From: Anaerolineae bacterium
GTDB lineage: Bacteria; Chloroflexota; Anaerolineae; Aggregatilineales; J027
Direction of reading: 5' to 3'
NCBI GenBank assembly: GCA_021463865.1
Contig: JAJTXY010000004.1
Coordinates: forward strand, 162,858-226,857
Length of the DNA: 64,000 bases
Under the pieces are notes generated by a model, which was not told where the DNA came from, made no database searches, and worked only from the letters and a program-made list of their open reading frames with translations. Position numbers and translations under genes: made by a program. Positions 15,797-34,029 of the stretch are shown here, in pieces. Position 1 is the first letter of the stretch; every line of letters begins with the position of its first letter.

Positions 15797-17989
15797 CTAT
15801 GCCATAGTCTGTTCGCTGTAATAACGGATAAAGCGTTCAATCGCTTCGGGTTCCAACAAACGCCCCGGCGTAGTAATGCTGTAGCTGCTGGCCCACACCG
15901 ACCCATATACCTCCGGGTCTTGACCTAGCGCTTCCAACAAGTAGTGGTTGGTTTCGCCCATCAAGATGTCCATCATCTCGGCAGGCTGTGCTTTAACCGG
16001 AATTTCGATATGGACATTTACCCAAAACTCCCCGACCATGACATCCACAAAATCCCAATCCTGTTCGCTGGCGACTTTTTGCAGCCAATAGCCAAGGGGT
16101 TCGCTGTAATCCACTAAGCGGATATTCGGCGCTTGCAATAACCACAAACACGCAAAACCCGCATAACTTCCCGGCTCGCGCACAGTCGGGCCAGTCTTCA
16201 CCTCACGCAGTCCAGCCGGTGCTTTTAGGTCAGTGGGGCGGCTGTGTTGGGTGGGGACATCTTCCTCAATAATGGTTGCCACCTGTTCGGCCATTTCCGG
16301 CGAGGTTGGCACATGTACTTCATCTGTATTGGGTGTTTTCTCCGGCACCAGCATCAGGGCCTCGGTCAATTGAGCCACCTGTTTGCGAATCATCCGTACT
16401 GGCAAATCACCAGAGAATACCAATGTCAGCGTCAAATCATCCACACTGCGCACGCTGAACAATAGGCATTGCCCATAACCTTCCAGATGGAGATAGCGCA
16501 TACGGGTATTATTTTCGCCCTCCCGGTGCCATGCCATCAACACCGCTTGGACAATTTCGTGCCATATATCGCTCGAAAAATTGCCCGTGCGCCCCACTGG
16601 ATAATCATGATGCGTCAGCAAAATCCCCAGCGCCGAGTTCTCCAACGAAAGCTGGGTAAGTTGCAGTGCAGCCCGTGCAATCACATCCATCTCCCCCAAC
16701 ATCTCCTCCACCGCTGCCTCATCAACACGCAGCAATTCGGTTTCAGGTAGAGTTGCATTTTGGTCGGGCAGCACCATCGCCTGTGTAACGTCCTCAAGGG
16801 TAGTAGGCACTAATTCAGCCTCATCCAGCACTGTTTTCATGCTGTCGGTACTGGTTTTGGAAAGCACTGCATATAAACGCGGATCTTCGTCACTTTCGGC
16901 TTCAGCAAGGGCTTCAAGTAGTTCCACATTGATTGGGCCAGAATCATGACTTGGCCCTTGCAACCACTCGATTTCTTCCCGTGTCAACGGATCGGGAATC
17001 AGATCAAATTCCGGCAGCAAAATAGGCTGAGTCACCGCGAGATACGGCGTCGTGTCATATTCTTTCGGTTCAAATAGGTCAGGGTCTATCGGTTGGAGAC
17101 GCTCCCCCGTTTTTTCTAATAATTCCTCAACCGTTGTTGGAGTGGGATGCAGCGCCTTCAGGAGTCCGGCCAGATAAGCCCTTTCTTCTTTGGTGCGCGG
17201 CTTTAACCATGAGGGCAAGGGTCGAATTTGAGGCTGTCCGGTCTGCTGCGAAAGCTGTTCGATACGCATCAAGACTGTATCCAATGGCATAGCTTCATTT
17301 TCGGTAATACGCAGTGCCGCCGCCGCCATCAAGCCCGTGTTTTCCCCTGACTCCACCGTCCGATTGGACAGCGGACTGCCAGCGGATTCAGGTGAGGTGG
17401 GCAGCATCTGTTGACTTTCGTTGGCTTCATGGCCTCCCAAAATCTCCGCGACGACTGCCGGGTCTTGTAACAATTCTAGCACCCGCCCCACTGTCGCACC
17501 TTCCTCAATCGGCGGTTCTGGGTCAATCGCTTGCATCATCGCGGCCTCAACCACCGTCTCGATTGGGACAACATTATCTCGGCGGATAGAAGATTCATTG
17601 GCCTTGTTGCGTAGATTGGAGTAAAAATCATAGCCCTGCTTGATGGCGTGTTCAATCAATTGGGCCAAATCTCGTGCTACATAAGGTTTGTGGGCATATC
17701 CCTGTACATCCAACGCCGGCACACGGTCAGGGTCACTGGGTGTACTACCCGATACGATAACGGGCAAATCCGGTTGGCGCACCCGCATCCCCAAAATGAG
17801 TTCGGCAGGGTCACCATGTTCAAGGTGCAAATCCACCACCGCAACCGAATACCGTTGTTCGTCCAGTGCCGAAAGGGCTGGACGTGAACGGCCCATGGCG
17901 CGGACATCAAAATCTAATTCCTCAAGGGCTTTTTTTAGCCGCAGGATAAACCCAATATCCGAATCTACAATCAAAACCCGCCGTGTCAT
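15797..17989 (-). CDS. Multidomain response-regulator protein: N-terminal receiver, long acidic linker, Roadblock/LC7-like segment, C-terminal degenerate IS200/Y1-transposase-like domain
   Basis: Start set at ATG 17989 (MTRRVLIVDSD). REC motifs are VAVVDLHL, VSGS and HKPY. The middle segment ..ENSALGILLTHHDYPVGRTG..CLLFSV..LTLTLVFSG.. looks Roadblock-like. The C-terminus ..WVNVHIEIPVKAQPAEMMDILMGETNHYL..SVWASSYSITTPG..IERFIRYYSEQ resembles the Y1_Tnp pattern (DHVHLLV..P..s...v..lKg.s...l...lW...Y...tvG....v..YI..Q). Confidence 0.6.
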   Translation of the reverse strand: MTRRVLIVDSDIGFILRLKKALEELDFDVRAMGRSRPALSALDEQRYSVAVVDLHLEHGDPAELILGMRVRQPDLPVIVSGSTPSDPDRVPALDVQGYAHKPYVARDLAQLIEHAIKQGYDFYSNLRNKANESSIRRDNVVPIETVVEAAMMQAIDPEPPIEEGATVGRVLELLQDPAVVAEILGGHEANESQQMLPTSPESAGSPLSNRTVESGENTGLMAAAALRITENEAMPLDTVLMRIEQLSQQTGQPQIRPLPSWLKPRTKEERAYLAGLLKALHPTPTTVEELLEKTGERLQPIDPDLFEPKEYDTTPYLAVTQPILLPEFDLIPDPLTREEIEWLQGPSHDSGPINVELLEALAEAESDEDPRLYAVLSKTSTDSMKTVLDEAELVPTTLEDVTQAMVLPDQNATLPETELLRVDEAAVEEMLGEMDVIARAALQLTQLSLENSALGILLTHHDYPVGRTGNFSSDIWHEIVQAVLMAWHREGENNTRMRYLHLEGYGQCLLFSVRSVDDLTLTLVFSGDLPVRMIRKQVAQLTEALMLVPEKTPNTDEVHVPTSPEMAEQVATIIEEDVPTQHSRPTDLKAPAGLREVKTGPTVREPGSYAGFACLWLLQAPNIRLVDYSEPLGYWLQKVASEQDWDFVDVMVGEFWVNVHIEIPVKAQPAEMMDILMGETNHYLLEALGQDPEVYGSVWASSYSITTPGRLLEPEAIERFIRYYSEQTMA

Positions 17990-18069
17990 GAATTTGCCTC
18001 TAATCGCGTTCCAATAGATGCACCTCTTAGGATAGCAGAAAACTTTCGCCCCCCGCAACGAGTAGGTAA

Positions 18070-18113
18070 ATAAAAATCCCCCCACCGAGCCTCGACAGCT
18101 ACTAATGGAGGGA
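18070..18113 (-). terminator. Rho-independent terminator downstream of SBP1
   Basis: On the minus strand, TCCCTCCA ... TGGGGGGA forms an 8-bp stem with one mismatch, followed by TTTTTATTT. It lies 68 nt after the SBP1 stop. Confidence 0.55.
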
Positions 18114-18180
18114 CTTTTGTGACTTACACCGGGAAGAGGTAAAGCCCCTCATCCCCGGCCAAGTTTTTTTTGGGGCTAAA

Positions 18181-19944
18181 TTAGCCGCGAGCAGCCAACT
18201 TGGCAGCCATATCAATGCTGTACGCACCCCAGTGAGCGCCGCCGAACAGGCCGTCGGTCTCAAATGGGCCAGTGTACCATGGCTTGAACAGGCTGAAGCC
18301 GGAGCGCAGGAAGATCGGGGCAATTGGGAATTCACCTTCTTCGCCGAAGAATGCCTCTTCAACTTCCGCATACAGTTGTTCACGAACCGCTGGGTCACTT
18401 TCGCGGGCAGCCTGATCAATCAGGTCGTCCACTTCGGTGCAGGGGCGCATGAAGTTGTAGTCAACATTGCAGGACAGCACGTCATGTACCCAGTTGTTGG
18501 CGTCACCATAGTCAGGACCCCAGCCGAGTGTCCAAGCATTCGGACGATCCTGCGTGGGGGTCTTGGAGTCAACGACTTCCAACAGAACCGAGAATTCGAG
18601 TTGTTCGGTGTTGAACAGCGCGGGATCGCAGCCGAGATATTCTTCAGCAGCGGCAGCCCAGAATTCAACCCATGTGCCAGCACCAGTGTAGGCAACGAGG
18701 TCAATGTTCGGGAAGCCTTCGCAGTTGGGATAACCAGCGGTTTCGAGTTGGGCAACCGCGTATTCGGGGTTGAAACCAACACCGACTTCATTGATGGGTG
18801 GCGCACCAGCCATACCGGGTGGGGTGAAGTGAATCATTGGCACACCACGACCACCACGAATTTGTTCCACAAACGCGGCGCGATCAATGATGGCGCTGAA
18901 GGCACGGCGGGCGTTTACATTGTCGAACGGCGCTTTGTCATGAGCATAGCCGAAATAGAACACAGCGAGGTCGAAGATTTGCAAAACTTGTTGAGACAGA
19001 ACTGGGTCGTTCAACACGTTTTGAATTTCAGCAGTGGGTACGCCCGTCGCATCCAGTTGATTGTCAAGGAAGAGGGCATAGGTGGTACCACCGTCCTCAA
19101 TGATGGTCTGGTTGATGACTTCGATATTGCCGGTGCCGCTGAACAGATCAGCCGGGAGGGCTTCATTACGCATAAACACGCGGCGCACGCCACGCGTAAT
19201 TTCGTCAACGAAGTATGGGCCATTGGTGATGATGTTGCCGGGGGCAGTCCATTCGTCACCGAATTCTTCAATGCCTTCCTGCGGCACAGGGCGGATCATC
19301 CACATGGGGGTCATGGACAGAAAGAAACCAGCGGCGAATTGCAGTTCAATCACGACAGTGGTGTCATCCGGGGCGCTGACCTTGGTGGTGTCGCCAAAAA
19401 CGAGGTCGTCAGTTACGGATTCGCTGGCGGTCTGATTGACCACATCGCAACCCGCAATTACGGTCGCCGCAATCGAGCCATAGTAGCTGCCCAAACGAGG
19501 ATCGCAAGCACGCTTGATGCCGTACACAAAGTCACCCGCGACAACGGGCCGCACGACGGTGGCGGTATCGCTGGCCGGGTCCCACTTCATCCAGTTGACA
19601 TCGGTGCGGAGGCTGAACGTCCAAGTCAAACCATCGGCGCTGGCTTCCCAAGTCGTCGCCAGTTCGGGGGTAACCGCGCTGGTGATGGGGTCATAGTTGG
19701 TCAGGCCGAGGAACAGGTTTTCAATAGGGGTGATCGAAACAGTGTCAGACGCCAGAACCGGGTCGAGCGAACTAATTTCGCTGCTGTCGGCGGTGTCACG
19801 GGTGACAGGTTCATCCTGACGATATTGAGCGGTAATGGTAATCTCGCTGTCGGCAGCGGCGGCAAAGCCGGTCGGCAGGAGGGCAACCACCATCGTCAGC
19901 ACCACGGCGACGACTGGGATCATCCGAAAGACTTTCTTTGACAT
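18181..19944 (-). CDS. Extracellular solute-binding protein, family 5 (DppA/OppA-type), paralogue 1 of 6
   Basis: Start ATG 19944 (MSKKVFRM) is preceded by AGGAGG. The signal peptide ends ..GFAAAA. It carries SSLDP..ASD..S...IENLFLGLT..DP....V.PELA..W..S.DGLTWTF.LR.DVNW, typical of family-5 SBPs. It aligns over its full length with the other five copies. Confidence 0.85.
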   Translation of the reverse strand: MSKKVFRMIPVVAVVLTMVVALLPTGFAAAADSEITITAQYRQDEPVTRDTADSSEISSLDPVLASDTVSITPIENLFLGLTNYDPITSAVTPELATTWEASADGLTWTFSLRTDVNWMKWDPASDTATVVRPVVAGDFVYGIKRACDPRLGSYYGSIAATVIAGCDVVNQTASESVTDDLVFGDTTKVSAPDDTTVVIELQFAAGFFLSMTPMWMIRPVPQEGIEEFGDEWTAPGNIITNGPYFVDEITRGVRRVFMRNEALPADLFSGTGNIEVINQTIIEDGGTTYALFLDNQLDATGVPTAEIQNVLNDPVLSQQVLQIFDLAVFYFGYAHDKAPFDNVNARRAFSAIIDRAAFVEQIRGGRGVPMIHFTPPGMAGAPPINEVGVGFNPEYAVAQLETAGYPNCEGFPNIDLVAYTGAGTWVEFWAAAAEEYLGCDPALFNTEQLEFSVLLEVVDSKTPTQDRPNAWTLGWGPDYGDANNWVHDVLSCNVDYNFMRPCTEVDDLIDQAARESDPAVREQLYAEVEEAFFGEEGEFPIAPIFLRSGFSLFKPWYTGPFETDGLFGGAHWGAYSIDMAAKLAARG

Positions 19945-19997
19945 TTTTAAGCTCCTCCTAGAGAGCATCTTAAAACTTTTTATGTATTCAACTCATC

Positions 19998-20027
19998 ATT
20001 GGTCCGGATTTGTCCGGGTTTGTCCGG
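19998..20027. repeat. Three tandem 10-nt repeats in the SBP1 leader
   Basis: Plus strand reads ATTGGTCCGG ATTTGTCCGG GTTTGTCCGG. The minus sense reads CCGGACAAAC CCGGACAAAT CCGGACCAAT. It lies 54-83 nt upstream of the SBP1 ATG. Confidence 0.85.
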
Positions 20028-20347
20028 CCTTCTGCCCCGGAAGCATGGGTAGGGCGTCGAGTGCGGCTGTGCTCCTTTCTTAAAACCGTTGGTGCTTGGC
20101 TTCCAATGCGTTGTACATGCTTACTTGCCAGGACAAGTCAAGGCTACAACCAGTTGGGTTGGGGACTCTTTGTAGAGAAAGGGAGTGTAGTGGGGAATTG
20201 GAATGGAAAGAGGGCAACAAGCTGTCCCTGCAATCCCAAAATGAACTTTCCGTGGCCCCATCAAAATAACTATTTCTCACAAAAGTAGGAAGCACAAGTC
20301 CACTAAATTTAAATTTGTACTACAGGACTCACTCGATGCTGATATAA

Positions 20348-20378
20348 ATTATAGCGATGTACACCGCTAGAATGCAAA
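20348..20378 (-). promoter_or_regulatory. Candidate sigma70-type promoter for SBP1 (perfect -10, weak -35)
   Basis: The minus strand reads TTGCAT-(18)-TATAAT, with the -10 at 20353-20348. It is positionally homologous to the better promoter upstream of SBP3; both follow the conserved block ACTCACT(C)GATGC. Confidence 0.4.
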
Positions 20379-20503
20379 TGGTTCGCCAGATTAGAAATTT
20401 TTAATCTTGATCATTTTTTAATAAAAGGTTTAATTGAAGCCATAAACTGAATGATGTGAAGATTTATTTTGCGTCAACCTTACGAATTGAAAAAAGTATA
20501 GCC

Positions 20504-20542
20504 AATAAAAAATCCCCACCGCCAATCAATGGCGAGGGGATT
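20504..20542 (-). terminator. Rho-independent terminator of SBP2
   Basis: On the minus strand, AATCCCCTCGCCA-TTGAT-TGGCGGTGGGGATT is followed by TTTTTTATT. It lies 38 nt after the stop. Confidence 0.75.
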
Positions 20543-20579
20543 GTGCGGTAGGATTAAACCCACCCGTTGTTATGATCGG

Positions 20580-22358
20580 TTATTCACCACGCGCTGCTAA
20601 CTTGGCGGCCATATCAATGCTATACGCACCCCAATGTGGGCCACCAAACAACCCGTCGCTTTCAAATGGGCCAGTGTACCACGACTTAATCAAGTTGAAA
20701 CTGGTATCCATGAAGATAGGTGCAATGGGGTAGTCCCCCTCTGGCCCAAAGAAGGCTTCTTCAATTTCAGCATACAGTTGATCACGCACCGATGGATCAG
20801 ATTCACGCGCCGCCTCGTTAATGAGGTCGTCTACTTCGGTGCAGGGGCGCATAAAAGCATTATCGGCGGTGCAAGACAACACGTCATTCACCCAGTTGTT
20901 GGCATCACCATAATCTGGCCCCCACCCCAAGGTCCAAGCGTTGGGACGGTCTTGGGTTGGCGTATCGGCATCAATGATTTCCAACAGCACCGAAAATTCA
21001 AGCTGCTCGACATTAAACAAAGAGGGGTCACAGCCGAGATATTCCTCAGCCGCCGATGCCCAAAAGTCTGCCCAATTGCCTGCCCCGGTATAGGTTGCCA
21101 TATTGACATTCGGGAAGCCTTCACAGTTGGGATAGCCCGCTGCTTCCATTTCAGCCTTCGCATATTCGGGGTCAAACCCAACACCAATTTCGTTGATAGG
21201 CGGAGCATGAGCCATACCGGGCGGAGTAAAGTGAATCATGGGAATGGCGCTGCCACCCAAGACCTGATCAATGAAGGCTTGACGGTCAATCACCGCCCCA
21301 AAAGCACGCCGCGCATGTTCATTATCAAACGGCGCTTTGTCATGACCAAAGGCGAAATAGAAGACCGAGAGGGCAAAAATCTGAATCACCTCTTGGGAAA
21401 GTTCGGGGTCCCCCAAAATATTTTGCAGTTCCGCCGAAGGCACACCGGAAGCATCCAGTTGATTATTGAGATAGAGCGAATAGATCGTGCCGCCGTCTTC
21501 AATGACCTGCTGATTGATAATCTCAATATTGCCCGTGCCGCTAAACAGGTCGGCGGGTAGATTTTCATTACGGACAAACACACGCCGCACACCACGAGTC
21601 AGTTCATCTACTACATAGGGGCCATTCGTCACAATGTTACCGGGGGCTGTCCATTCATCACCAAATTCCTCAATAACTTCCTGTGGCACGGCACGGAGCA
21701 TCCACATGGGGGTCATCGAGAAGAAAAAGCCTGCGGCAAATTGCAATTGGACTACGAGTGTCGTGTCATCGGGCGCACTCACGGCAATTGTATCACCATA
21801 AACGAGATCATCCGTCACCGACTCAGTGGGGGTCTGATTAACCACATCACAACCCTTGATGACCTTCGCCGAAATCGTGCCGTAATAACCGCCGAGACGA
21901 GGGTCGCAGCCGCGTTTAATGCCATACACAAAATCGCTTGCGACCACCGGACGAATAATGGTCGCGCTGTCACTGGCTGGGTCCCAACGCAGCCAATTGA
22001 CATCGGTGCGCAAGTTGAATGTCCACGTCACATTGTCGGGTGCAATCGTCCATGACGAAGCTACTTCTGGATTGACCGCGCTGGTAATGGGGTCATAGTC
22101 CGTCAGGCCAAGAAATAGATTCTCGATAGGGGCAATTGAGACCTGATCTGAGGCAATCTGGGGGTCGAGGGAGCTAATTTCGCTGCTTGCCGCCGTGTCA
22201 CGCTGCACGGGGACATTTTGGCGATAGAGCGCTACCACGGTTACTTCCGTATCACTGGCCGATGCGAAACCGACGGGCAACATGGCCGCGACGAGTGCCA
22301 ACACCAGTAATGAGGCTGGCATTACCCTAACCATTCTTTTTACCACTTCTCTATTCAT
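20580..22358 (-). CDS. Extracellular solute-binding protein, family 5, paralogue 2 of 6
   Basis: Full-length paralogue with an RBS (AGGAGAG) upstream of ATG 22358 and a signal peptide ending ..GFASAS. Confidence 0.85.
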   Translation of the reverse strand: MNREVVKRMVRVMPASLLVLALVAAMLPVGFASASDTEVTVVALYRQNVPVQRDTAASSEISSLDPQIASDQVSIAPIENLFLGLTDYDPITSAVNPEVASSWTIAPDNVTWTFNLRTDVNWLRWDPASDSATIIRPVVASDFVYGIKRGCDPRLGGYYGTISAKVIKGCDVVNQTPTESVTDDLVYGDTIAVSAPDDTTLVVQLQFAAGFFFSMTPMWMLRAVPQEVIEEFGDEWTAPGNIVTNGPYVVDELTRGVRRVFVRNENLPADLFSGTGNIEIINQQVIEDGGTIYSLYLNNQLDASGVPSAELQNILGDPELSQEVIQIFALSVFYFAFGHDKAPFDNEHARRAFGAVIDRQAFIDQVLGGSAIPMIHFTPPGMAHAPPINEIGVGFDPEYAKAEMEAAGYPNCEGFPNVNMATYTGAGNWADFWASAAEEYLGCDPSLFNVEQLEFSVLLEIIDADTPTQDRPNAWTLGWGPDYGDANNWVNDVLSCTADNAFMRPCTEVDDLINEAARESDPSVRDQLYAEIEEAFFGPEGDYPIAPIFMDTSFNLIKSWYTGPFESDGLFGGPHWGAYSIDMAAKLAARGE

Positions 22359-22523
22359 GGGTTCTCTCCTGAAAATACTAAAGAATCACGAAAATTGTAC
22401 TGGATACCCCAATTTGGCACAAAAGGTTCAATTCGTTTAAGATTTTCTCATATAAGGAAACATCCCCAAAAACACAAATCCCCCCGGTGCAGCAAATCTC
22501 GCGCGGAGGGATCGGTGGTTAGG

Positions 22524-22570
22524 TCCCCTACCCTGCCGTCATCATCTACGGGCGATGGCAGGGTTAGGGA
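22524..22570 (-). terminator. Long stem-loop just after the SBP3 stop (no clear T-run)
   Basis: TCCCCTACCCTGCC (22524-22537) pairs with GGCAGGGTTAGGGA (22557-22570) with small bulges. It lies 16 nt after the stop. Confidence 0.4.
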
Positions 22571-22585
22571 ATCACTTAGTTCAGT

Positions 22586-24352
22586 TTATTCACCACGTGC
22601 TGCCAACTTCGCAGCCATGTCAATGTTGTAGGCACCCCAGTGAGCGCCACCAAACAGACCGTCGCTCTCAAATGGACCGGTGTACCACGGTTTCACCAAT
22701 GTGAAGAACGAACGCAGATAGATCGGGGCAATCGGGTATTCACCTTCTGCGCCAAAGAACGATTCTTCGATCTCGGCATACAGTTGGTCACGTACCGCCG
22801 GATCACTTTCGGCAGCGGCCTGATTGATCAGGTCGTCTACTTCGGTGCAGGGACGCAGGAAGGCGTTGTCGGAGGTGCAGGACAGCACATCGTTCACCCA
22901 GTTGTTGGCGTCACCATAGTCGGGACCCCAGCCGAGCGTCCAAGCATTCGGACGATCCTGCGTGGGGGTGTTGGGATCAACGATTTCCAACAACACGGAG
23001 AATTCAAGTTGTTCAACATTCAACAACGATGGATCACAGCCGAGATATTCTTCAGCCGCTGCTGCCCAGAAGTCTGTCCATGTACCAGCACCCTGATAAG
23101 CGACCATATCAATCGCTGGGAAGCCTTCACAGTTGGGATAACCCGCCGCTTCCATCTCGGCAACGGCGTATTCTGGGTCAAACCCAACACCGATTTCATT
23201 GATAGCAGGGGCATGAGCCATACCGGGTGGGGTGAAGTGAATCATCGGCACACCACGACCAGCCAACACCTGTTCAATGAACGCTTGGCGGTCAATGATG
23301 GCACTGAAAGCACGACGCGCGTGAACATTGTCAAAGGGCGCTTTGTCATGACCAAAGCCAAAATAGAACACGGTCAGGTCAAAGATTTGCAGCACTTCTT
23401 GGGACAATGTGGGGTCAGACAACACATTTTGGATTTCTGCCGCAGGCACACCGGAACTGTCGAGTTGGCTGTTTTGATACAGCGCATAGATCGTACCAGC
23501 GTCTTCAATCACGGTGGTGTTGATGACTTCTACATTGCCAGTGCCGCTGAACAGATCAGCAGGCAGGGCTTCGTTGCGCACGTACACGCGGCGCACACCA
23601 CGAGTAATTTCTTGCACAAAGAATGGGCCGTTCGACACGATATTGCCGGGGGCAGTCCATTCGTCACCGAATTCTTCAATGACTTCTTGTGGGACAGCAC
23701 GGAGCATCCACATGGGGGTCATGGAGAAGAAATAACCAGCAGCGAATTGCAGTTCGACCACGAGGGTCACGTCATCGGGGGCGCTGACGGCAATGGTTTC
23801 ACCGTAAACCAGATCATCCGTAACGTTTTCGGCAACCGTTTGGTTGACCACATCGCAGCCCTTGATTACCTTGGCCGAAATCGTACCGTAATAACCACCC
23901 AAACGGGGGTCGCAGCCGCGCTTAATGCCATAGACAAGATCGCCTGCCACCACTGGGCGCACGACAGCGGCGGTTTCGGTTGCCGGGTCATAACGCATCC
24001 AATTGACATCGCTGCGTAGATTGAACGTCCATACCAAACCGTCGGCGCTCACTTCCCATGAAGTCGCCAATTCGGGGTTAATCGCGCTGGTGATTGGGTC
24101 ATAGTCTGTCAGGCCCAAAAACAGATTTTCAACTGGAATGATCGAAACACTGTCCGAAATGATCGCTGGGTCAAGGGAGCTAATTTCGCTCTGGCTTGCC
24201 CCGTCAATCGTAACAGGCGTATCCTGACGATATTGGGCCACAACGGTAACGGTGGCATCTTCCGCAGCCGCAAAACCGGTCGGAAGTAATGCAACCACCA
24301 GTGTCAGCACAATCGCTGCGACTGGGATGAGTCGAAAAGTGGATTTAGACAT
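22586..24352 (-). CDS. Extracellular solute-binding protein, family 5, paralogue 3 of 6
   Basis: Start ATG 24352 (MSKSTFRL) is preceded by AGGAGG. This copy is closest to paralogue 1 at the N-terminus. Confidence 0.85.
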   Translation of the reverse strand: MSKSTFRLIPVAAIVLTLVVALLPTGFAAAEDATVTVVAQYRQDTPVTIDGASQSEISSLDPAIISDSVSIIPVENLFLGLTDYDPITSAINPELATSWEVSADGLVWTFNLRSDVNWMRYDPATETAAVVRPVVAGDLVYGIKRGCDPRLGGYYGTISAKVIKGCDVVNQTVAENVTDDLVYGETIAVSAPDDVTLVVELQFAAGYFFSMTPMWMLRAVPQEVIEEFGDEWTAPGNIVSNGPFFVQEITRGVRRVYVRNEALPADLFSGTGNVEVINTTVIEDAGTIYALYQNSQLDSSGVPAAEIQNVLSDPTLSQEVLQIFDLTVFYFGFGHDKAPFDNVHARRAFSAIIDRQAFIEQVLAGRGVPMIHFTPPGMAHAPAINEIGVGFDPEYAVAEMEAAGYPNCEGFPAIDMVAYQGAGTWTDFWAAAAEEYLGCDPSLLNVEQLEFSVLLEIVDPNTPTQDRPNAWTLGWGPDYGDANNWVNDVLSCTSDNAFLRPCTEVDDLINQAAAESDPAVRDQLYAEIEESFFGAEGEYPIAPIYLRSFFTLVKPWYTGPFESDGLFGGAHWGAYNIDMAAKLAARGE

Positions 24353-24682
24353 TTTGGCCCCTCCTGGAGAGCGCAATTTATCTTAAGAATCGAATTTTTT
24401 GGGTGGGTTCATCCGGTCAGTTGCCCCGGAAAGCATGTCAATAGTTGAAATGTTGGTGACACACCTTTCTCCTGATTGGTAACGAGCCTTACATCGGGTG
24501 AGGATTTACACAACATATACATGGGGGACAGTTTGGAAGTTCAAGGAATTTTTGAGGGAATCGCATCGAGCGAATTCGGTTTCCCAGAAACAAGAGCTGT
24601 TTCCAAACCGCACACATGTCAATTGAATTGCAGGGCAACCCAATGGGATGTTGTTAAAAACTCACTGATGCCATTAATGAAG

Positions 24683-24710
24683 ATTATAGGAAGGGTTCAC
24701 CTATTGTCGA
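24683..24710 (-). promoter_or_regulatory. Near-consensus sigma70-type promoter for SBP3, implying a ~320-nt 5' leader
   Basis: The minus strand reads TCGACA (24710-24705), a 16-nt spacer, then TATAAT (24688-24683). Confidence 0.55.
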
Positions 24711-24796
24711 GAAACATCAGAGATTTCTAACGTCTCTATGGTTTTGTTAAATCGTCGAACCAGATGCAATTTTCGGGCGTACATGCAATTAGAAAT

Positions 24797-24879
24797 AAAA
24801 AGAGGGTTTGCCAGGACAGCCCTCTTTTTGCCGCATAAAAGGCAAAAGGAGTAGGAGTGTTAACCATACCCCTACTCCT
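24797..24879 (-). terminator. Cluster of three hairpins downstream of SBP4, two of them followed by T-runs on the minus strand
   Basis: GGAGTAGG/CCTACTCC (24848-24878) is followed by TTTTGCCTTTT on the minus strand. TTGCC/GGCAA is a short middle hairpin. AAAAAGAGGG..GCCAGGACA..CCCTCTTTTT spans 24797-24829. Confidence 0.65.
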
Positions 24880-24963
24880 CATCAATTACAAAAATGACGA
24901 TTCTATAGCCTGCCTATCTCATAACGAGCTAAGGCTCTATTGTACCGACCACTGGTTTAGTGC

Positions 24964-26727
24964 CTATTCGCCACGTGCGGCCAACTTCGCCGCCATATCA
25001 ATCGTATACGCTCCCCAGTGAGCGCCGCCAAACAACCCGTCCGTTTCAAACGGCCCAGTGTACCATGGCTTAAAAAGACTGAACGCGGAACTTAGGAACA
25101 ACGGCACAATCGGGTAGTCCCCATCCGGGCCAAAGAGCGCCTCTTCGATTTCGGCATACAACTGGTCACGCACGGTTGGGTCGGTTTCGCGGGCGGCCTG
25201 ATTCAAAAGGTCATCCACTTCGGTGCAGGATCGCAGGAAATTATAGTCTGCCGTGCAAGACAGCACATCGTTGACCCAATTATTGGCATCGGCATAATCT
25301 GGCCCCCACCCCAACGTCCACGCATTGGGGCGATCTTGCGTAGGCGTCTCGTTATCAATGATTTCCAGCAGTACCGAAAATTCAAGCTGCTCGGTATTAA
25401 ACAGGGTGGGATCGCAACCGAGATATTCTTCGGCAGCGGCAGCCCAAAAATCGGCCCAATTGCCTGCCCCTTGATAGGCGGCAATATTGATATTCGGGAA
25501 ACCTTCACAATCGGGATAGCCTGCGGCTTCTAGTTCAGCAACGGCATAGTCGGGGTCAAAGCCAACGCCGATTTCATTGATGGCCGGGGCATGAGCCATA
25601 CCGGGCGGCGTGAAGTGGATCATCGGCACCCCTTGACCGCTGGCAACCTGCTCCACAAATGCTTGCCGATCCACAATCGCGGCAAAGGCCCGACGCGCAT
25701 GGACATTATCAAAGGGCGCTTTGTCATGGGCAAAGCCAAAATAATAGACGCTCAGGGTGAAAATTTGGCGAACCTGCTGCGACAATTCAGGATCAGCCAA
25801 TACATTCTGCAATTCCGCTGGGGGCACACCCGCCGCGTCATGCTGATGATTGAGATACAGAGCATAGGCTGTCCCAGCATCTTCAATCACGCTGTAGTTG
25901 ACCACCTCAAGGTTGCCGTTGCCGCTGAATAGGTCTAAAGGCAGGGCTTCATTACGCACATAGACCCGCCGCACACCGCGTGTAATCTCATCCACAAAAT
26001 AGGGGCCATTGGTGACGATGTTGCCGGGGGCTGTCCATTCATCGCCATAATCTTCAATGGTTTCCTGTGGGACGGCCCGCAACATCCACATAGGAGTCAT
26101 GGAAAAGAAATACCCGGCGGCAAATTGCAGTTCGACCACCACCGTCACATCATCTGGCGCACTGATTTTGACTGTATCGCCAAACACCAGATCATCAGTC
26201 GTGGCTTCGGCACTGGTCTGATTCACAATATCGCAGCCCGCGATCACTTTGGCGGCCACCGAACCATAATAGTTGCCGAGGCGACCATCACAGGCCCGTT
26301 TGATGCCATATACAAAGTCGCCTGCCACCACTGGGCGCACAACTGAGGCGGTTTTGCTGGCGGGGTCATAGTGCATCCAATTGACATCCGAGCGCAAATG
26401 GAATGTCCATGTCAGACCATCTTGGCTCACTTCCCAACTAGTCGCCAGTTCAGGGTTGACCGCACCCGTCACGGGGTCAGAATCGGTCAGCCCCAAAAAC
26501 AGATTTTCAATCGCGGTAATCGAAAGCGCGTCGCTGGCAATGCCGGGGTCAAGTGAACTGACCTCATCCGGGGACGACGTATCGCGGGTGACGGGGACAT
26601 CTTGGCGATAGAGCGCCGCAATCGTGATAGTGCTGTCAGACGCCGAGGCAAAGCCTACTGGGAACAGCGCGACCACCATCGTAAAAATTACAATCAATAC
26701 GGGCAACAATCGAATCTTTAAACTCAT
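24964..26727 (-). CDS. Extracellular solute-binding protein, family 5, paralogue 4 of 6
   Basis: Start ATG 26727 (MSLKIRLL) is preceded by AGGAGG. Full-length paralogue. Confidence 0.85.
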   Translation of the reverse strand: MSLKIRLLPVLIVIFTMVVALFPVGFASASDSTITIAALYRQDVPVTRDTSSPDEVSSLDPGIASDALSITAIENLFLGLTDSDPVTGAVNPELATSWEVSQDGLTWTFHLRSDVNWMHYDPASKTASVVRPVVAGDFVYGIKRACDGRLGNYYGSVAAKVIAGCDIVNQTSAEATTDDLVFGDTVKISAPDDVTVVVELQFAAGYFFSMTPMWMLRAVPQETIEDYGDEWTAPGNIVTNGPYFVDEITRGVRRVYVRNEALPLDLFSGNGNLEVVNYSVIEDAGTAYALYLNHQHDAAGVPPAELQNVLADPELSQQVRQIFTLSVYYFGFAHDKAPFDNVHARRAFAAIVDRQAFVEQVASGQGVPMIHFTPPGMAHAPAINEIGVGFDPDYAVAELEAAGYPDCEGFPNINIAAYQGAGNWADFWAAAAEEYLGCDPTLFNTEQLEFSVLLEIIDNETPTQDRPNAWTLGWGPDYADANNWVNDVLSCTADYNFLRSCTEVDDLLNQAARETDPTVRDQLYAEIEEALFGPDGDYPIVPLFLSSAFSLFKPWYTGPFETDGLFGGAHWGAYTIDMAAKLAARGE

Positions 26728-26957
26728 TTGCAAGATCCTCCTGAGTTGAATGAATGGGACAGCGTGAGGACTCACTTGCCGTAAAACGGGGTACGCAGAT
26801 TTTATGCAGAAACACGGAGAAAGGTTGTAAAGGTAGAGTTTTTCTGATCTATTATAAAATTTGTCAAAATAGTGAACTTATGGCTAATTCAAGGGGTATT
26901 TATATAACAAAATACCCCTTACCATTTGCGCACCCAAAAAGTTCAAACTGATTTCTA

Positions 26958-26992
26958 CAAAAAAAGCCGAGAGGGGCCAGGACACCCTCTCG
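26958..26992 (-). terminator. Rho-independent terminator of SBP5
   Basis: CGAGAGGG-GCCAGGACA-CCCTCTCG (26968-26992), with TTTTTTT following on the minus strand. It lies 28 nt after the stop. Confidence 0.8.
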
Positions 26993-27019
26993 ATAGATTT
27001 ATTTGACTATTTATTCTTT

Positions 27020-28780
27020 TTACTCACGCACGGCCAATTTCGCGGCCATGTCAATAGAATAGGCGATCCAGTGCTGTCCACCGAAGAGACCATCCGTCTC
27101 AAACGGGCCAGTGTACCATGGCTTGAACAGCAAATAATCCGAACGTAGATACAGCGGAGCCATCGGGAATTCGCCATCTGCGCCGAAGAACCCCTCTTCG
27201 ATTTCGGCATACAGTTGGTCACGTACACCGGGATCGCTGACTGTTGCAGCCTCCGCAATGAGGTCATCCACTTCGGTGCAAGGCCGTTTCATACGATTCG
27301 CAACCGTGCAGGCCAATACGTCACCCACCCAGTTGTTGGCATCGCCATAATCCGGCCCCCACAACAACGTCCATGCGTTGGGGCGATCTTCGGTTGGGGT
27401 ATCGGAATCGGTGATTTCGAGCAGCACGGAGAATTCGAGTTGTTCGATGGTGAATAGGGTCGGGTCGCAGCCGAGATATTCTTCAGCCGAGGTCGCCCAA
27501 AATTCACCCCAGTCCCCTGCCGTCGTATAGGTTACGATGTTGATGTCAGGGAAACCTTCGCAGTCAGGATAACCTGCTGCTTCTAGTTCAGCGGCGGCAT
27601 ATTCAGGGTCAAAACCGACTCCCACTTCATTGATCGGGGCGGCATGAGCCATACCGGGGGGTGTGAAGTGGATCATCGGCACCCCGCGCCCTTCCTGCAC
27701 CTGATCAATAAACGCTTGCCGATCAATGATGGCACTGAACGCACGACGGGCATGGACATCATCAAACGGGGCTTTGTCGTGGGCAAACCCAAAATACGAC
27801 ACGGCGAGGTCAAATATCTGGCGCACTTCGTTTTGATACTGCGGGTCAGACACCACCCCCTGCAATTCGGCGTCGGGGATGTTGGTCGCGTCGAGTTGAT
27901 TATCCAGATACAGCGCGAACTGGGTGCCGAGGTCTTCAATCAACAGGGTGTTCACCACATCAATGTTGCCAGACCCCTGCAAATCGGCGGGTAGGGCTTC
28001 ATTGCGGACAAACACGCGGCGTACCCCACGAGTCACTTCTTGGACAAAATAGGGGCCGTTGGTGATGATATTGCCCGGTTGCGTCCATTCGTCACCATAG
28101 TCTTCAATCGCCTCACGCGGGGTTGGGCGCAGCACCCACATCTGGGTCATCGAGAGGAAATAACCCGCCGGAAATGCCAACGTAATCACCAGCGTCGAAT
28201 CATCCGGCGCGGATACTTGGGTGGTGTCTCCATACACCAAATCATCCGTTACTTGGTCAACTGGGCTTTGGTTGACCACACTGCAACCCGCGATGACACC
28301 AGCAACCACCGTGCCATAATAGCTGGCAAGGCGGGGGTCACAGGCGCGTTTGATGCCAAACACAAAATCGCCTGCTACAACCGGACGAATGACGGTGGCG
28401 GTGTCAGCGGTGGGATCATACTGCATCCAATTGACATCGGTACGCAGATTAAACGTCCATGTCAGGCCATCTTCACTCACCGTCCATGAGGTCGCCAATT
28501 CCGGCACAATCTGATTGGTGATGGGGTCGGAATCAGTCAGGCCCAAAAACAGATTTTCGACAGACGTAATCGAAATCTGATCTGACCCAATGGCGGGGTC
28601 AAGCGTACTGACTTCGCTGGTCGAGGCTGTATCGCGTTGCACGGGGACGTCTTGGCGATATTGGGCCGTGACGGTGATAGTGCTGTCTTCGGCGGCCACC
28701 AAACCAACCGGAATGAAGGACACCAAGAGGGTTAGCAGCACAGCCATAACCGTGCCTGCTCGCAAGGTGTTTTTAGACAT
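27020..28780 (-). CDS. Extracellular solute-binding protein, family 5, paralogue 5 of 6 (more divergent)
   Basis: Full-length paralogue with an RBS (AAGGAG) and a signal peptide ending ..GLVAAEDS. Confidence 0.85.
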   Translation of the reverse strand: MSKNTLRAGTVMAVLLTLLVSFIPVGLVAAEDSTITVTAQYRQDVPVQRDTASTSEVSTLDPAIGSDQISITSVENLFLGLTDSDPITNQIVPELATSWTVSEDGLTWTFNLRTDVNWMQYDPTADTATVIRPVVAGDFVFGIKRACDPRLASYYGTVVAGVIAGCSVVNQSPVDQVTDDLVYGDTTQVSAPDDSTLVITLAFPAGYFLSMTQMWVLRPTPREAIEDYGDEWTQPGNIITNGPYFVQEVTRGVRRVFVRNEALPADLQGSGNIDVVNTLLIEDLGTQFALYLDNQLDATNIPDAELQGVVSDPQYQNEVRQIFDLAVSYFGFAHDKAPFDDVHARRAFSAIIDRQAFIDQVQEGRGVPMIHFTPPGMAHAAPINEVGVGFDPEYAAAELEAAGYPDCEGFPDINIVTYTTAGDWGEFWATSAEEYLGCDPTLFTIEQLEFSVLLEITDSDTPTEDRPNAWTLLWGPDYGDANNWVGDVLACTVANRMKRPCTEVDDLIAEAATVSDPGVRDQLYAEIEEGFFGADGEFPMAPLYLRSDYLLFKPWYTGPFETDGLFGGQHWIAYSIDMAAKLAVRE

Positions 28781-28883
28781 CTAGGAACTCCTTTTTGAAT
28801 CGAAATGATGTAATTAGGCTACCAAGTGGCGGGTCAGGCCGACCTATAACGACACCCCCTCCTTATCGTTCGTGTTCCGTGTG

Positions 28884-28924
28884 AAAAAATAGGCAACCTA
28901 CACTGGGAACAAATGTAGGCTGCT
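28884..28924 (-). terminator. Rho-independent terminator ~215 nt downstream of SBP6
   Basis: On the minus strand, GCAGCCTACA-TTTGTTCCCAG-TGTAGGTTGC is followed by CTATTTTTT. Confidence 0.7.
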
Positions 28925-29139
28925 GACCAATGACGAGTAGCGTGCTTTCGGATGGCTGATGCAACTCCAACGAAGTGTTTCGTCTACTCACTCTATTTAC
29001 ACCGAAAAATGGAAGGGTGTTCGATTCTAAGAGGGGATTCACCAAAATACTAATTCTTTGAACCTATCCTGCTACATGGGGCTATTGTTAATTCCCCTCC
29101 CACCCGACGGTTGGGGCAAGAGGGGAAAAGAAGATTGGG

Positions 29140-30900
29140 TTATCCCCCTCCTCGTGCCGCCAATTTTGCAGGCATATCAATCATTTGGGCGTTCCAATGT
29201 GTCCCACCAAACAAGGCATCGGTCTCAAAGGGTGCGGTGTACCATGCCTTAATCAAGACAAAATCGGAGCGAAGGAATAGCGGCGCGATGGGATATTCAC
29301 CCCGCACCCCAAAAAACCCCTCCTCAATTTCGGCATACAACAGCGTTCGTACTTCTGGGTCATTAGAGCGGGCCGCTGCGTCCATCAAATCATCTATACT
29401 ACTGCACTGCCGCCGAAACCGATTCAGTGTCGTACACGACAGCACATCTGTCAGCCAGCTATGCGCATCGCCATAACCCGGCCCCCACCCCAACGTAAAC
29501 ATATTGGGACGTTCATCACCGTAGACATCCGGCGCGATGGCTTCCAATAGCACCGAAAATTCAAACTGCTCAATTGTGAATAGGGTCGGGTCACACCCCA
29601 AGTATTCCTCGGCGGAGGACACCAAAAATTCGGCCCATGTGCCTGCTCCAGTATAGGTCGCAATGGTGATATTCGGCAGCCCTTCACAGTTACTATACCC
29701 CCCTCGGGCCAGTTGATCTTTCGCAAATTCCGGGTCGAAACCCACCCCGATTTCATTGATGGGCGGTGCATAGGCAATCCCCGTCGGCGTGAAATGGATC
29801 ATGGGGATGCCACGTCCGCCGCGCACCTGATTGATAAAGGCTTGGCGGTCAATGATAGCACTAAACGCCCGCCGCACCTGCACATTGTCAAACGGGGGCT
29901 TGTCTTGGATGAATCCAAAATAGAACACCGATAGATCAAATACCTGCCGCACTTCGCCTTCAAAGTCAGGACTCGCCAAGACATTTTGCAATTCCGCCGG
30001 GGGTATGGCCGCCGCATCAATCTTGTTATCAATATAGAGCGCAAACGACGTGCCTTGATCTTCAATGACAAGCTGCACCACGCGCTCCAAATTGCTGCGA
30101 TACCCAAACAAATCATTCGGCAGGGCATCGTTTCGCACAAACACCCGCTGCAAGCCGCGTGTCAGTTCTTGGATAAAAAACGGCCCATTCGTGACAATAT
30201 TGCCGGGGGCCGTCCATTCATCCCCATAATCTTGGATCACTTCCGCCGGGACAGGTCGCAGCATCCACATCGGGGTCATCGCAAAGAAAAACGCCGCCGG
30301 AAATTGTAGGGTTACTTCGAGGGTCTGCTCGTCAAGTGCCTGCACCTTAATCGTATCGCCATACACTAAATCATCTGTTAGCCCATTGGCAGGCGTCTGA
30401 TTGATGATGTCGCATCCTGAAATGACCTTCGCGGCTACCGTCCCATAATATCCACCGAGGCGCGGGTCACAGGTTCGTTTGATGCCATATACAAAATCAC
30501 CCGCCACGACTGGGCGCACTACCCCGGCGGTTTCACTGGCAGGGTCATAACGCATCCAGTTGACATCCGAGCGCAACTGAAATGTCCACACCGTCCCGTC
30601 GTCACTCACGACCCATGACTTGGCAAGTTCTGGCACAACCTCATTGGTAAACGGGTCAACATCGGTCAGACCCAAAAATAAATTCTCAATCGGCGTGAGC
30701 GACACCGTATCGGAGGCCAACGCCGGGTCAAGCGTGCTGATTTCCGAACTCACCGCCGCATCCAACGTTACCGGAGTATCGGCTTGATATAACGCCACAA
30801 TCGTGACTCCACTATCCTCAGCCCGACTTACCCCCCTCGGCCCGCCGAACCCAATGACGATTAAGCCTACTAATCCCATCATCCATAGTCGCCGTCGCAT
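29140..30900 (-). CDS. Extracellular solute-binding protein, family 5, paralogue 6 of 6 (most divergent)
   Basis: Full-length paralogue with an Arg-rich N-terminus, MRRRLWMMGLVGLIVIGFGG. It has the same six conserved Cys positions as the other copies. Confidence 0.85.
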   Translation of the reverse strand: MRRRLWMMGLVGLIVIGFGGPRGVSRAEDSGVTIVALYQADTPVTLDAAVSSEISTLDPALASDTVSLTPIENLFLGLTDVDPFTNEVVPELAKSWVVSDDGTVWTFQLRSDVNWMRYDPASETAGVVRPVVAGDFVYGIKRTCDPRLGGYYGTVAAKVISGCDIINQTPANGLTDDLVYGDTIKVQALDEQTLEVTLQFPAAFFFAMTPMWMLRPVPAEVIQDYGDEWTAPGNIVTNGPFFIQELTRGLQRVFVRNDALPNDLFGYRSNLERVVQLVIEDQGTSFALYIDNKIDAAAIPPAELQNVLASPDFEGEVRQVFDLSVFYFGFIQDKPPFDNVQVRRAFSAIIDRQAFINQVRGGRGIPMIHFTPTGIAYAPPINEIGVGFDPEFAKDQLARGGYSNCEGLPNITIATYTGAGTWAEFLVSSAEEYLGCDPTLFTIEQFEFSVLLEAIAPDVYGDERPNMFTLGWGPGYGDAHSWLTDVLSCTTLNRFRRQCSSIDDLMDAAARSNDPEVRTLLYAEIEEGFFGVRGEYPIAPLFLRSDFVLIKAWYTAPFETDALFGGTHWNAQMIDMPAKLAARGGG

Positions 30901-30952: not shown

Positions 30953-30985
30953 ACAAAATAAAATACCCGCTGAGGGTGCAGCGGG
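30953..30985 (-). terminator. Rho-independent terminator separating the membrane-protein gene from SBP6
   Basis: On the minus strand, CCCGCTG-CACCCT-CAGCGGG is followed by TATTTTATTTTGT. Confidence 0.75.
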
Positions 30986-31016
30986 CTGAATATTGGTCAG
31001 ATTTAATCTTTTTTGA

Positions 31017-32108
31017 CTAGGCCGTTGGTTGGCTTGAATTGCGGACGGGCGTATCGGCGGGTGGATAGCTACCAAAAAGGCTTCGCAGCGCTACCTGTGA
31101 AACAAAGGCGACCATCGCCGCCGTCATCACCGGCCCAATCCACAACAGCAGCCAAAATACATAGCGCGGCATGGTGATACTCAAGCGCCAAATTTCCACC
31201 GTCCAATTTCGATAATTCGGCAGCAGCAAATGTAAAGCGTGCCCCTTGCCCAACTCTGGCTCATACATCGTCAGCACTTGATAAATCATGACCAACACTA
31301 ACAAGTGGATCATCACACCAGCCGCCGAACTATAGATGATGTCTGGCTGTAATCGCTGCCAATATTTGCGACCAAACCGGATACCGACCCACGCCGCCAC
31401 CAGCATATTGGCAAAGGGATTCACCAGCGAATCAATGTACAAAATACCCGCCGTTCGCCCGCCTGTCGCTTCGACACCGGGGGCAAGATCAATATCGCGG
31501 ATATTCAAAATTGCCAAGCGCAGAAACAGTAGGGTCATGGGCAACAGTGCCGCCACGACCACCGTTGCTCCATCCATTTTGGGTTTTGGCAGCAGGGTCG
31601 AAAATGTACCGCTAGAAGTGAAACTCCCCGTCACCACCGCCAATCCGACCATCAACGCCCCTAACACCATGACCATGATAAAAAAGGCCGGATACGTCGG
31701 CAGTGCTTTAAGATAGAAAATATCGAGGATTTCAGTAAAGGCCTCGTGCCCAACATCGGGGAAATAACCAATCAGGATCATCCGCATCCCGACGGCAATC
31801 TCATAACCCAATACTGCGCTCCAGACGGTTGAGGCGTGATACCCCGGGCGGTCTTGCCATAATAGTCCGCAGATAAAAGCGCTGATATAGCCGCCAGCCC
31901 AGATGCCCAGAACCAACCAAATGGCCTCGCGCATATTGTCGGGCAAATTGACAATACCATAGCCGGGGAAAAAATCATTCAGCCGCTCTAGTGCCACTCC
32001 ATTGAGTAGGGTGGCAATGCCGAAGGTAATCCATGCTGTAAAGGTCAGTACCCACAAATCAAGCCGAAACAATCGGGAGGATAGAGATGTTTTGGATTCA
32101 GTTGTCAA
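31017..32108 (-). CDS. Polytopic integral membrane protein, unknown family
   Basis: 363 aa with about 9 hydrophobic helices and no transporter signature I recognise. It begins 30 nt after the upstream receiver gene. Confidence 0.6.
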   Translation of the reverse strand: MTTESKTSLSSRLFRLDLWVLTFTAWITFGIATLLNGVALERLNDFFPGYGIVNLPDNMREAIWLVLGIWAGGYISAFICGLLWQDRPGYHASTVWSAVLGYEIAVGMRMILIGYFPDVGHEAFTEILDIFYLKALPTYPAFFIMVMVLGALMVGLAVVTGSFTSSGTFSTLLPKPKMDGATVVVAALLPMTLLFLRLAILNIRDIDLAPGVEATGGRTAGILYIDSLVNPFANMLVAAWVGIRFGRKYWQRLQPDIIYSSAAGVMIHLLVLVMIYQVLTMYEPELGKGHALHLLLPNYRNWTVEIWRLSITMPRYVFWLLLWIGPVMTAAMVAFVSQVALRSLFGSYPPADTPVRNSSQPTA

Positions 32109-32138
32109 ACGTCGTTCTCAATTCATGATGTAGGCAGT

Positions 32139-32630: not shown

Positions 32631-32728
32631 TGTTCACAACTCCCCTTATGAATTTTTAGGAAATTTTGCTTAAATCATACCATCAGCGATGTTCTCAGCA
32701 AGTGTCACCGTTTGAGACTGGTTAGAAC

Positions 32729-33997: not shown

Positions 33998-34029
33998 CAG
34001 CCACTCCTTTCGGGAGGTCGTTCACACCA

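Follow-up and report, generated by a model that had tools for sequence, protein, structure and literature searches.

Six tandem OppA-type solute-binding protein genes without adjacent transporter genes in an Anaerolineae genome

RESULTS

Organization and divergence of the array

In a 64,000-nucleotide stretch of the genome of an Anaerolineae bacterium (contig JAJTXY010000004.1 of assembly GCA_021463865.1; the whole stretch is referred to as the window), six consecutive genes for solute-binding proteins (SBPs) lie on the minus strand within positions 18181-30900. These genes are designated S1 to S6, with S1 being the final gene of the array. The raw open reading frames (ORFs) spanned 18181-19968, 20580-22358, 22586-24376, 24964-26775, 27020-28780, and 29140-30900, and their starts were refined to an ATG located behind a Shine-Dalgarno sequence, giving lengths of 586 to 592 codons. 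An earlier note, made from the sequence of the window alone, had described six tandem full-length paralogs of these lengths on this strand, and this was confirmed by matches of all six proteins to the Pfam family SBP_bac_5 (PF00496), with E values of 1e-48 to 1e-55 and scores of 165 to 188 bits (gathering cutoff, 32.4). The intergenic spacers from S1 to S6 were 635, 227, 611, 292, and 359 nucleotides (nt) in length, exactly as noted earlier, and 116 nt separated S6 from an upstream membrane-protein gene. Pairwise comparisons of S1 to S4 detected 74 to 79% identity in protein and 71 to 77% in DNA, so that the earlier description of these four copies as very similar was too strong. The greater divergence claimed for S5 and S6 was borne out, with protein identities to the other copies of 68 to 72% and 63 to 64%, respectively. 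This limited level of identity (63 to 79% across the array) indicated that the six copies are old duplicates.

The window was ~94% identical in DNA to the metagenome-assembled genomes (MAGs) "Chloroflexota bacterium CFX10," a 5.55-Mb MAG from a freshwater anammox reactor (PMC7358590), and "Anaerolineae bacterium MAG_03," indicating a genome that is close to these two but not identical. Close protein homologs of the array came in all cases from Chloroflexota or Anaerolineae MAGs (retrieved loci carry numbers from L001 upwards). A groundwater MAG, GCA_016234595.1 (GW1614; locus L001), had seven tandem copies in the same neighborhood. S1 to S6 paired one-to-one, and in order, with GW1614 copies at 84 to 93% identity (93, 89, 91, 87, 86, and 84%, respectively), leaving one GW1614 copy unpaired, versus an identity of 61 to 81% between paralogs inside one genome (63 to 79% in the window). 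The ratios of nonsynonymous to synonymous substitution rates (dN/dS) of these ortholog pairs were in the range of 0.04 to 0.10 (0.095, 0.055, 0.052, 0.042, 0.070, and 0.083 for S1 to S6, respectively), which indicated strong purifying selection on every copy, and dS was ~1.1 to 1.9 except for S1 (0.48). A gene conversion test, as suggested in the earlier note, detected no convincing tracts, the longest identical runs being within the expectation from codon shuffling; a 39-nt run shared by S1 and S3 was marginal (95th percentile, 35). The one-to-one orthology, the low dN/dS values, and the lack of convincing gene conversion indicate that the duplications are old and that the copies are individually maintained.

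Copy number at the syntenic locus varied among relatives (1, 1, 3, 6, and 7). In MAG_03, a gene for a 457-amino-acid (aa) HEAT-repeat protein (L022:1890-3263) was observed between the S6 and S5 orthologs, and the same gene is probably present in CFX10 (L008:1-853). Its absence from the window indicated that array content varies even between ~94% identical genomes. A dispersed extra paralog was present in CFX10, MAG_03, GW1614, and another MAG (L012 to L015). This paralog (L012:7624-11764 on CFX10 contig JABFGB010000004.1; also L013, L014, and L015) is 65% identical to S1, has the motif NWYADY, and is located directly 3' of an enolase-superfamily gene (MR_MLE, dipeptide-epimerase-like) and an Orn/DAP decarboxylase gene; there are hints of a role with murein peptides or D-amino-acid peptides.

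Predicted fold, export signal, and ligand anchor

The closest sequence matches of the array proteins in the Protein Data Bank were OppA and MppA (E values of 1e-31 to 1e-33). The top NCBIfam model was PRK15104 (OppA), with scores of 116 to 129 bits against an equivalog cutoff of 947; as the cutoff was not reached for the OppA, DppA, or MppA models, the proteins are judged to be OppA-like, yet not orthologs of enterobacterial OppA. An AlphaFold2 model of S1 had a predicted local distance difference test (pLDDT) score of 85.6 and a predicted template modeling (pTM) score of 0.77. The top Foldseek matches of this model were MppA (4toz), OppA (1ola), and DppE (8azb), with E values of 1e-36 to 1e-38 and template modeling scores of 0.77 to 0.85, normalized to the target. 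By sequence and by predicted three-domain fold, the array proteins are classed as OppA/MppA-type oligopeptide binders. At each N terminus, a single hydrophobic segment preceded an AxA-type motif, a lipobox Cys was absent, and a signal-peptidase-I-type export signal is predicted.

Equivalents of OppA residues were assigned by aligning the array proteins to Escherichia coli OppA via intermediate sequences, so that a few anchor residues were mapped by homology. In OppA, Asp419, Tyr109, Trp416, and Gly415 clamp the free N terminus of the peptide, with Asp419 being salt-bridged to the alpha-amino group (PMC3173086). The equivalents of these four residues were kept in S1 to S5 and in the operon-encoded sister clade described below. 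The Asp419 equivalent sits in a GW-x-x-DY motif and was Asp in S1 to S5 and their orthologs. In S6, this anchoring Asp was replaced by Gly (GWGPGY, not GWGPDY), and the same replacement was present in MAG_03 and GW1614 and hence in three genomes (window, 29140-30900; L001:1288-3045; L022:121-1881), in a lineage on which purifying selection acts. At this position, Asn was observed in a related L003 copy. The loss of Asp suggests a changed ligand class in the S6 lineage. The equivalents of OppA V34 and K307 varied between paralogs, with the K307 equivalent identical in every ortholog pair and the V34 equivalent in four of the six.

Sister clades with and without linked transporter genes

When 77 SBPs, taken from all retrieved loci, were placed in a neighbor-joining tree, two sister clades resulted, designated A and B. 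Clade B included the window genes and comprised 37 sequences, from the window and 14 further MAGs or contigs, in 1 to 7 tandem copies. Clade A proteins (L023 to L051) were 46 to 53% identical to S1, and most were encoded inside oppD-oppF-oppA-oppB-oppC operons. Clade A and the array proteins were of one length class and had in common the motifs FLSMTPMW and GWGPDY as well as an unusual C-terminal tail (ALFGGxxW..ID..AK.AA). A lipobox (L[SAV][AG]C) was detected in 32 of 32 clade A proteins with intact N termini versus 0 of 37 clade B proteins. Most clade A proteins had an acidic or Pro/Ala-rich linker, often of 30 to 60 aa, whereas clade B proteins had a signal-peptidase-I-type signal, no linker, and no permease linkage. 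The clade A linkers, which extend from the lipobox to the binding domain, were repetitive and either Val/Glu/Thr rich or Pro/Ala/Glu rich, were short only in L037, L040, L047, and L051, and look like long tethers.

Loss of the lipobox was considered as a sign of a nontransport role. This idea was weakened by operon-encoded family 5 SBPs of other Anaerolineae (L054, L100, and L101), which, like another CFX10 SBP, also had no lipobox. At two of these loci (L101:2080-10076 and L100:6133-10089), A-B-C or A-B-C-A-B-C sets were present with no ATPase gene in the retrieved 8 kb on either side; judged from such sets, dispersed opp genes are not unusual, and dispersed Opp components seem to be common, in Anaerolineae. 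In three MAGs, a canonical clade A operon and orphan paralogs of the same clade were present on different contigs (HK-STAS-CHLO-37, L023/L031; D1.bin.20, L029/L052; AS02xzSISU_56, L107/L042), the L042 orphans being in tandem. When a metagenome scan was performed with the six-copy alignment, nearly all matches were clade A contigs and one was a short clade B contig.

Transcription signals, leaders, and codon usage

Shine-Dalgarno sequences of the GGAGG/AGGAG type were located 6 to 10 nt 5' of all six starts, that of S6 being weaker (AAGGGG). Folding detected strong hairpins 3' of all six genes (-14 to -25 kcal/mol), five of them with a T-run, and a further terminator was found between the array and the upstream membrane-protein gene (Table 1); the earlier note had listed each of these signals. 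The hairpin stems carried compensatory changes relative to the orthologous array in a related MAG, in which the S2 terminator had another stem with an identical T-run. A terminator-like hairpin with a T-run was also observed at 28893-28923 (minus strand) in the S6-S5 spacer, ~110 nt 5' of the S5 start, and is kept in GW1614. This hairpin could be the true S6 terminator or an attenuator in the S5 leader.

Sigma-70-like hexamers were present upstream of S1, S2, and S3 and were identical in GW1614, where synonymous sites are near saturation. The regions upstream of S4, S5, and S6 yielded no consensus-like promoter. Independent transcription from separate promoters and terminators, as proposed earlier for all of the copies, is well supported by these conserved signals for S1 to S3; for S4 to S6 the proposal rests on the terminators, since no consensus-like promoter was found there. 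Promoters and leaders differed from copy to copy.

The array spacers were 70 to 83% identical to those of GW1614 despite the near saturation of synonymous sites in most copies, which argues that this noncoding DNA, including the S1 and S3 leaders, is constrained. A common element, CATGCT(T)TCCGG-N9-CCGGA, was detected in the S1 and S3 leaders (20023-20047 and ~24412-24437, respectively) and was confined to these two lineages. Two candidate explanations for these leaders were rejected. A structured RNA received no thermodynamic signal from the folding z-scores (+0.37 and -1.46, respectively), and diverged homologs were too few for covariation. A leader peptide was rejected on the basis of conservation of the common element as nucleotides across different reading frames. 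Rfam searches at gathering thresholds yielded no match across the window, and a search of the array at E values up to 1 yielded a single chance-level match; no tRNA was detected in a search of the window.

S1 stood out as the most conserved copy and the one with the strongest codon bias. Its effective number of codons (41.5) was the lowest in the window, with no TTA or CTA codons and one TCA codon, and this bias suggests that S1 would be the most highly expressed copy. The absence of these codons also explained a 569-aa antisense ORF opposite S1 (18232-19941, plus strand). This ORF and those opposite S3 (22640-24019; 459 aa) and S2 (20634-21560; 308 aa) are shadows of codon bias and not antisense genes.

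Neighboring genes

Upstream of the array, the region 31017-34554 (minus strand) encodes a response regulator (RR) of 174 aa, a PAS histidine kinase (HK) of 422 aa, an RR of 163 aa, and a multipass membrane protein of 363 aa, which is seven-transmembrane (7-TM)-like and had no Pfam match. Downstream (15797-18085, minus strand) is a 762-aa RR protein whose C terminus weakly resembles an IS200-Y1 transposase (E value of 0.005). The HK (32729-33997) contains PAS, HisKA, and HATPase domains, with no hydrophobic segment and no extracytoplasmic domain. The membrane protein and the long RR (662 to 762 aa) flank the array in the window, L001, L002, L003, and L010, and the RR-HK-RR cluster was present in the window, L002, L003, and L010; in L001 it would fall past the retrieved end. 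An opposite-strand methyltransferase gene was located between the membrane-protein gene and the array in L002 and L003. The two-component neighborhood was not found at the distant clade B loci L004, L005, and L012 to L017, of which L004, L005, L012, L016, and L017 had several kilobases of flank, and the flanks of L018 and L021 were too short for this comparison. The locus thus differs from SBP-dependent sensing of the LuxP/LuxQ or TorT/TorS type, in that the kinase has no extracytoplasmic domain and the linkage is not family wide.

Elsewhere in the window, two TIR-domain proteins with unusual partners were observed, one with an FGE-sulfatase-like domain (39077-40336, minus strand) and the other with FecR and Gmad2 domains (62057-63910, plus strand). 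These may be signaling or defense proteins.

Table 1. Genes and predicted transcription signals of the array (window coordinates; L001 numbers denote SBP copies of GW1614)
Feature	Position	Strand	Details
S1, OppA-type SBP, 587 aa	18181..19944	-	PF00496, E 2.7e-49; positional ortholog L001_7
S2, SBP paralog, 592 aa	20580..22358	-	PF00496, E 1.1e-49; positional ortholog L001_6
S3, SBP paralog, 588 aa	22586..24352	-	PF00496; positional ortholog L001_5
S4, SBP paralog, 587 aa	24964..26727	-	PF00496, E 3.3e-55; positional ortholog L001_3
S5, SBP paralog, 586 aa	27020..28780	-	PF00496; positional ortholog L001_2
S6, most divergent SBP paralog, 586 aa	29140..30900	-	PF00496; positional ortholog L001_1
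Terminator hairpin with T-run 3' of S1	18072..18118	-	dG -23.2 kcal/mol
Terminator 3' of S2	20511..20542	-	dG -20.3 kcal/mol; tail TTTTATTGG
Two hairpins 3' of S3, T-run on the second	22473..22570	-	dG -25.0 and -21.3 kcal/mol
Terminator 3' of S4	24846..24880	-	dG -19.3 kcal/mol; T-rich tail
Terminator 3' of S5	26968..26992	-	dG -14.6 kcal/mol; tail GCTTTTTTT
Hairpin without T-run 3' of S6	29093..29126	-	dG -23.3 kcal/mol; tail ATTAACAAT
Terminator between upstream membrane-protein gene and array	30965..30986	-	
S1 promoter-like site, TTGCAT-18 nt-TATAAT	20348..20377	-	403 nt 5' of ATG; hexamers identical and distance similar in GW1614
S2 promoter-like site, TTGTGC-17 nt-TACAAT	22394..22422	-	35 nt 5' of ATG; conserved in GW1614
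S3 promoter-like site, TCGACA-16 nt-TATAAT	24683..24710	-	330 nt 5' of ATG; 11/12 consensus matches; conserved in GW1614
S1 long conserved leader	19945..20347	-	403 nt; 77% identity with GW1614 across 534 nt; folding z-score +0.37
S3 long conserved leader	24353..24682	-	330 nt; 75% identity with GW1614 across 496 nt; folding z-score -1.46

DISCUSSION

The interpretation that we favor, with a probability of roughly two in three, is that the array encodes a battery of OppA-type peptide receptors that have diverged and that serve an Opp-type translocator encoded elsewhere, with the copies being separately regulated. What we infer within this interpretation is that the proteins dock on a distant translocator and that the copies differ in specificity and in expression. 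The diverged paralogs would bind different peptides, as pocket-proximal differences are fixed within each ortholog pair and the copies probably differ in preference for this reason. S6, with Gly for the anchoring Asp, might take N-blocked or noncanonical ligands. Loaded receptors would then dock onto an OppBC/OppDF-type ATP-binding cassette (ABC) translocator encoded at another site in the genome, and separate promoters would let each receptor be regulated alone. The ecological setting may be that of a heterotroph scavenging peptides from detritus and extracellular polymers. A transport role is favored by the OppA/MppA fold, the kept anchor for the peptide N terminus, the ~50% identical operon-encoded sister clade with the same tail, the strong purifying selection, and the occurrence of other Anaerolineae MAGs with both operon and orphan paralogs.

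Several observations weigh against a receptor battery of this kind. The earlier report of no DppB/C-type permease or DppD/F-type ATPase held for the whole of the 64 kb: no permease was detected when all window ORFs of at least 80 aa were searched by phmmer with E. coli OppB, OppC, and OppD and the larger ORFs were scanned with Pfam, and the sole ABC ATPase was an ABC-F protein (59883-61607). In a canonical Opp/Dpp importer operon the SBP gene stands beside the genes for two permeases and for one or two ATPases, an arrangement that is lacking at the array, whose genes are unlinked to transporter genes and in this sense are orphans. At 14 further genomic places (MAGs and contigs) where the orphan clade occurs, the available flanking sequence, which reaches 10 kb at most, contained no OppB, OppC, OppD, or OppF gene. 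OppB-seeded protein searches, with queries from a sister-clade operon (L025) and an Aggregatilineales operon (L054), placed none of their best 120 matches on an array-bearing contig; these matches were all at least 72% (L025 query) or at least 63% (L054 query) identical to the query, and the result is absence of evidence only. The genomic context of four widely sampled OppB matches consisted only of sister-clade or unrelated genomes. No sister-clade (operon-type) SBP of CFX10, MAG_03, or GW1614 was among the matches listed in the genome scan, and opp/dpp genes are not named in the CFX10 paper or its supplement (PMC7358590). Furthermore, Arg413, His371, and Arg404, which anchor the C-terminal carboxylate in enterobacterial OppA, are replaced in the array proteins. 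Of the two roles left open in the earlier note, receptors for a distant transporter or some other function, the first gained from the fold, the anchor, and the kinship with the sister clade, and the transporter itself was not located among the best 120 matches per search.

It is unlikely, in our assessment, that the SBP fold no longer serves ABC import and that the array proteins are secreted, unanchored peptide binders with a role in capture or sequestration, in the envelope, or as signaling coreceptors. Such a role would fit the failure to locate a permease in the array lineage within the best 120 matches per OppB search and the orphan state of the whole of clade B in all contexts seen, and an orphan oligopeptide-binding protein of Treponema pallidum without a discernible transporter offers a precedent (PMC5736914). 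Clade B proteins also differ from the sister clade in having neither a lipobox (0 of 37 versus 32 of 32) nor a long linker, but lipobox absence follows lineage and not orphan status, as operon-encoded Anaerolineae SBPs lack it too. A coreceptor function could draw on the neighbors conserved in the window and its relatives (the 7-TM-like protein, the RR-HK(PAS)-RR cluster, and the long RR); this two-component neighborhood, however, is absent from the distant clade members L004, L005, L012, and L016-L017, the kinase lacks both transmembrane and extracytoplasmic domains, and the membrane-protein gene is split from the array by a terminator and, in L002 and L003, also by the methyltransferase gene. 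Moreover, the peptide-anchor residues and the tail common with the transporter-linked clade are kept. A permanent uncoupling of the whole Anaerolineae clade, nonlipidated, unlinked from permeases in the contexts seen, and amplified in tandem more than once, from ABC transport, with freely diffusing binders in the extracellular or sheath space (for peptide capture, sequestration, or signaling) and a switch of ligand class in the S6 lineage upon loss of the anchoring Asp, appears quite improbable.

We likewise give little credence to gene-dosage amplification, in which redundant copies would provide high total expression of one broad-specificity receptor. Although copy number ranges from 1 to 7 among relatives, the copies are just 63 to 79% identical, with saturated synonymous sites, and each has been a distinct positional ortholog since before the split from GW1614, with no homogenization by gene conversion. 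OppA-type pockets are intrinsically promiscuous (PMC3173086), but paralog-specific substitutions, including the Asp-to-Gly change of S6, are kept in the orthologs. The strong codon bias of S1 suggests high expression, in line with amplification; against this, the copies have differing promoters and leaders. That the adjacent two-component system has the SBPs as its ligand-sensing partners, via the upstream multipass membrane protein, is very improbable and was rejected, since the membrane protein-[SBP]n-long RR order in five genomes (window, L001, L002, L003, and L010; with RR-HK-RR ahead in four) is confined to close relatives, in which shared ancestry can explain synteny, and is absent from other clade members, while the kinase is cytoplasmic and the transcription units are separate.

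The general arrangement of orphan OppA-type receptors sharing a translocator is already known from other bacteria. There is ample documentation of multiple or orphan SBPs of this type on one translocator (PMC3173086, PMC5736914, PMC4206461, PMC11192437), and the rarity of orphan SBPs implied in the earlier note was overstated. In Borrelia burgdorferi, the paralogs OppA1 to OppA5 share one Opp translocator, have structurally different pockets, and are differentially regulated (PMC5736914, PMC7822543). The likeness extends to three oppA genes that lie in tandem, each under its own promoter, and to two orphans located apart from the permease genes (PMC5736914, PMC7822543); the difference is that the tandem oppA1-3 genes adjoin the opp permease and ATPase genes and encode lipoproteins, whereas the six array genes, and the dispersed seventh in relatives, are unlinked and their products have no lipobox. 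The separately located SBP genes of Streptococcus pneumoniae (AmiA, AliA, and AliB, with AliC and AliD) feed different oligopeptides to AmiCDEF (PMC11192437, PMC5736914). Unlike the array, the pneumococcal orphans are dispersed single lipoprotein genes, amiA stays in the operon, and the proteins have an extra domain and are ~620 to 640 aa in length. E. coli MppA, with YgiS, is an orphan OppA paralog that arose by duplication and uses OppBCDF; its specificity was shifted by a few pocket substitutions with the N-terminal Asp anchor retained (PMC3173086), and it was among the best structural matches of S1. MppA differs in being a single orphan beside a canonical oppABCDF operon, and the array proteins are 23 to 26% identical to it and are without the Arg402/Arg411 contacts. 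According to PMC4206461, the five family 5 SBPs DppA1 to DppA5 of Pseudomonas aeruginosa have overlapping but distinct specificities and share a single dppBCDF translocator; the difference there is that DppA1-A5/DppBCDF takes di- and tripeptides in a diderm periplasm. The array thus differs in degree from these systems, in that a whole clade is orphan, with up to seven tandem copies and one dispersed copy, the proteins are predicted nonlipoproteins, and one lineage is without the anchoring Asp.

If the array is indeed a receptor battery for a distant translocator, it would show a filamentous Chloroflexota heterotroph of wastewater or anammox settings investing in modular, separately regulated peptide scavenging, which would fit the proposal that such organisms consume detrital and extracellular protein (PMC7358590). 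It would also be a clean case of birth-and-death evolution of SBP specificity, with orthologs long kept, no concerted evolution, and one copy without the canonical anchor. Were the proteins instead uncoupled from transport, a transport-independent family of secreted binders would be the more notable finding. For annotation pipelines, the absence of an adjacent permease should not be taken as loss of function, and metabolic models of Anaerolineae should count the array receptors together with Opp translocators encoded elsewhere.

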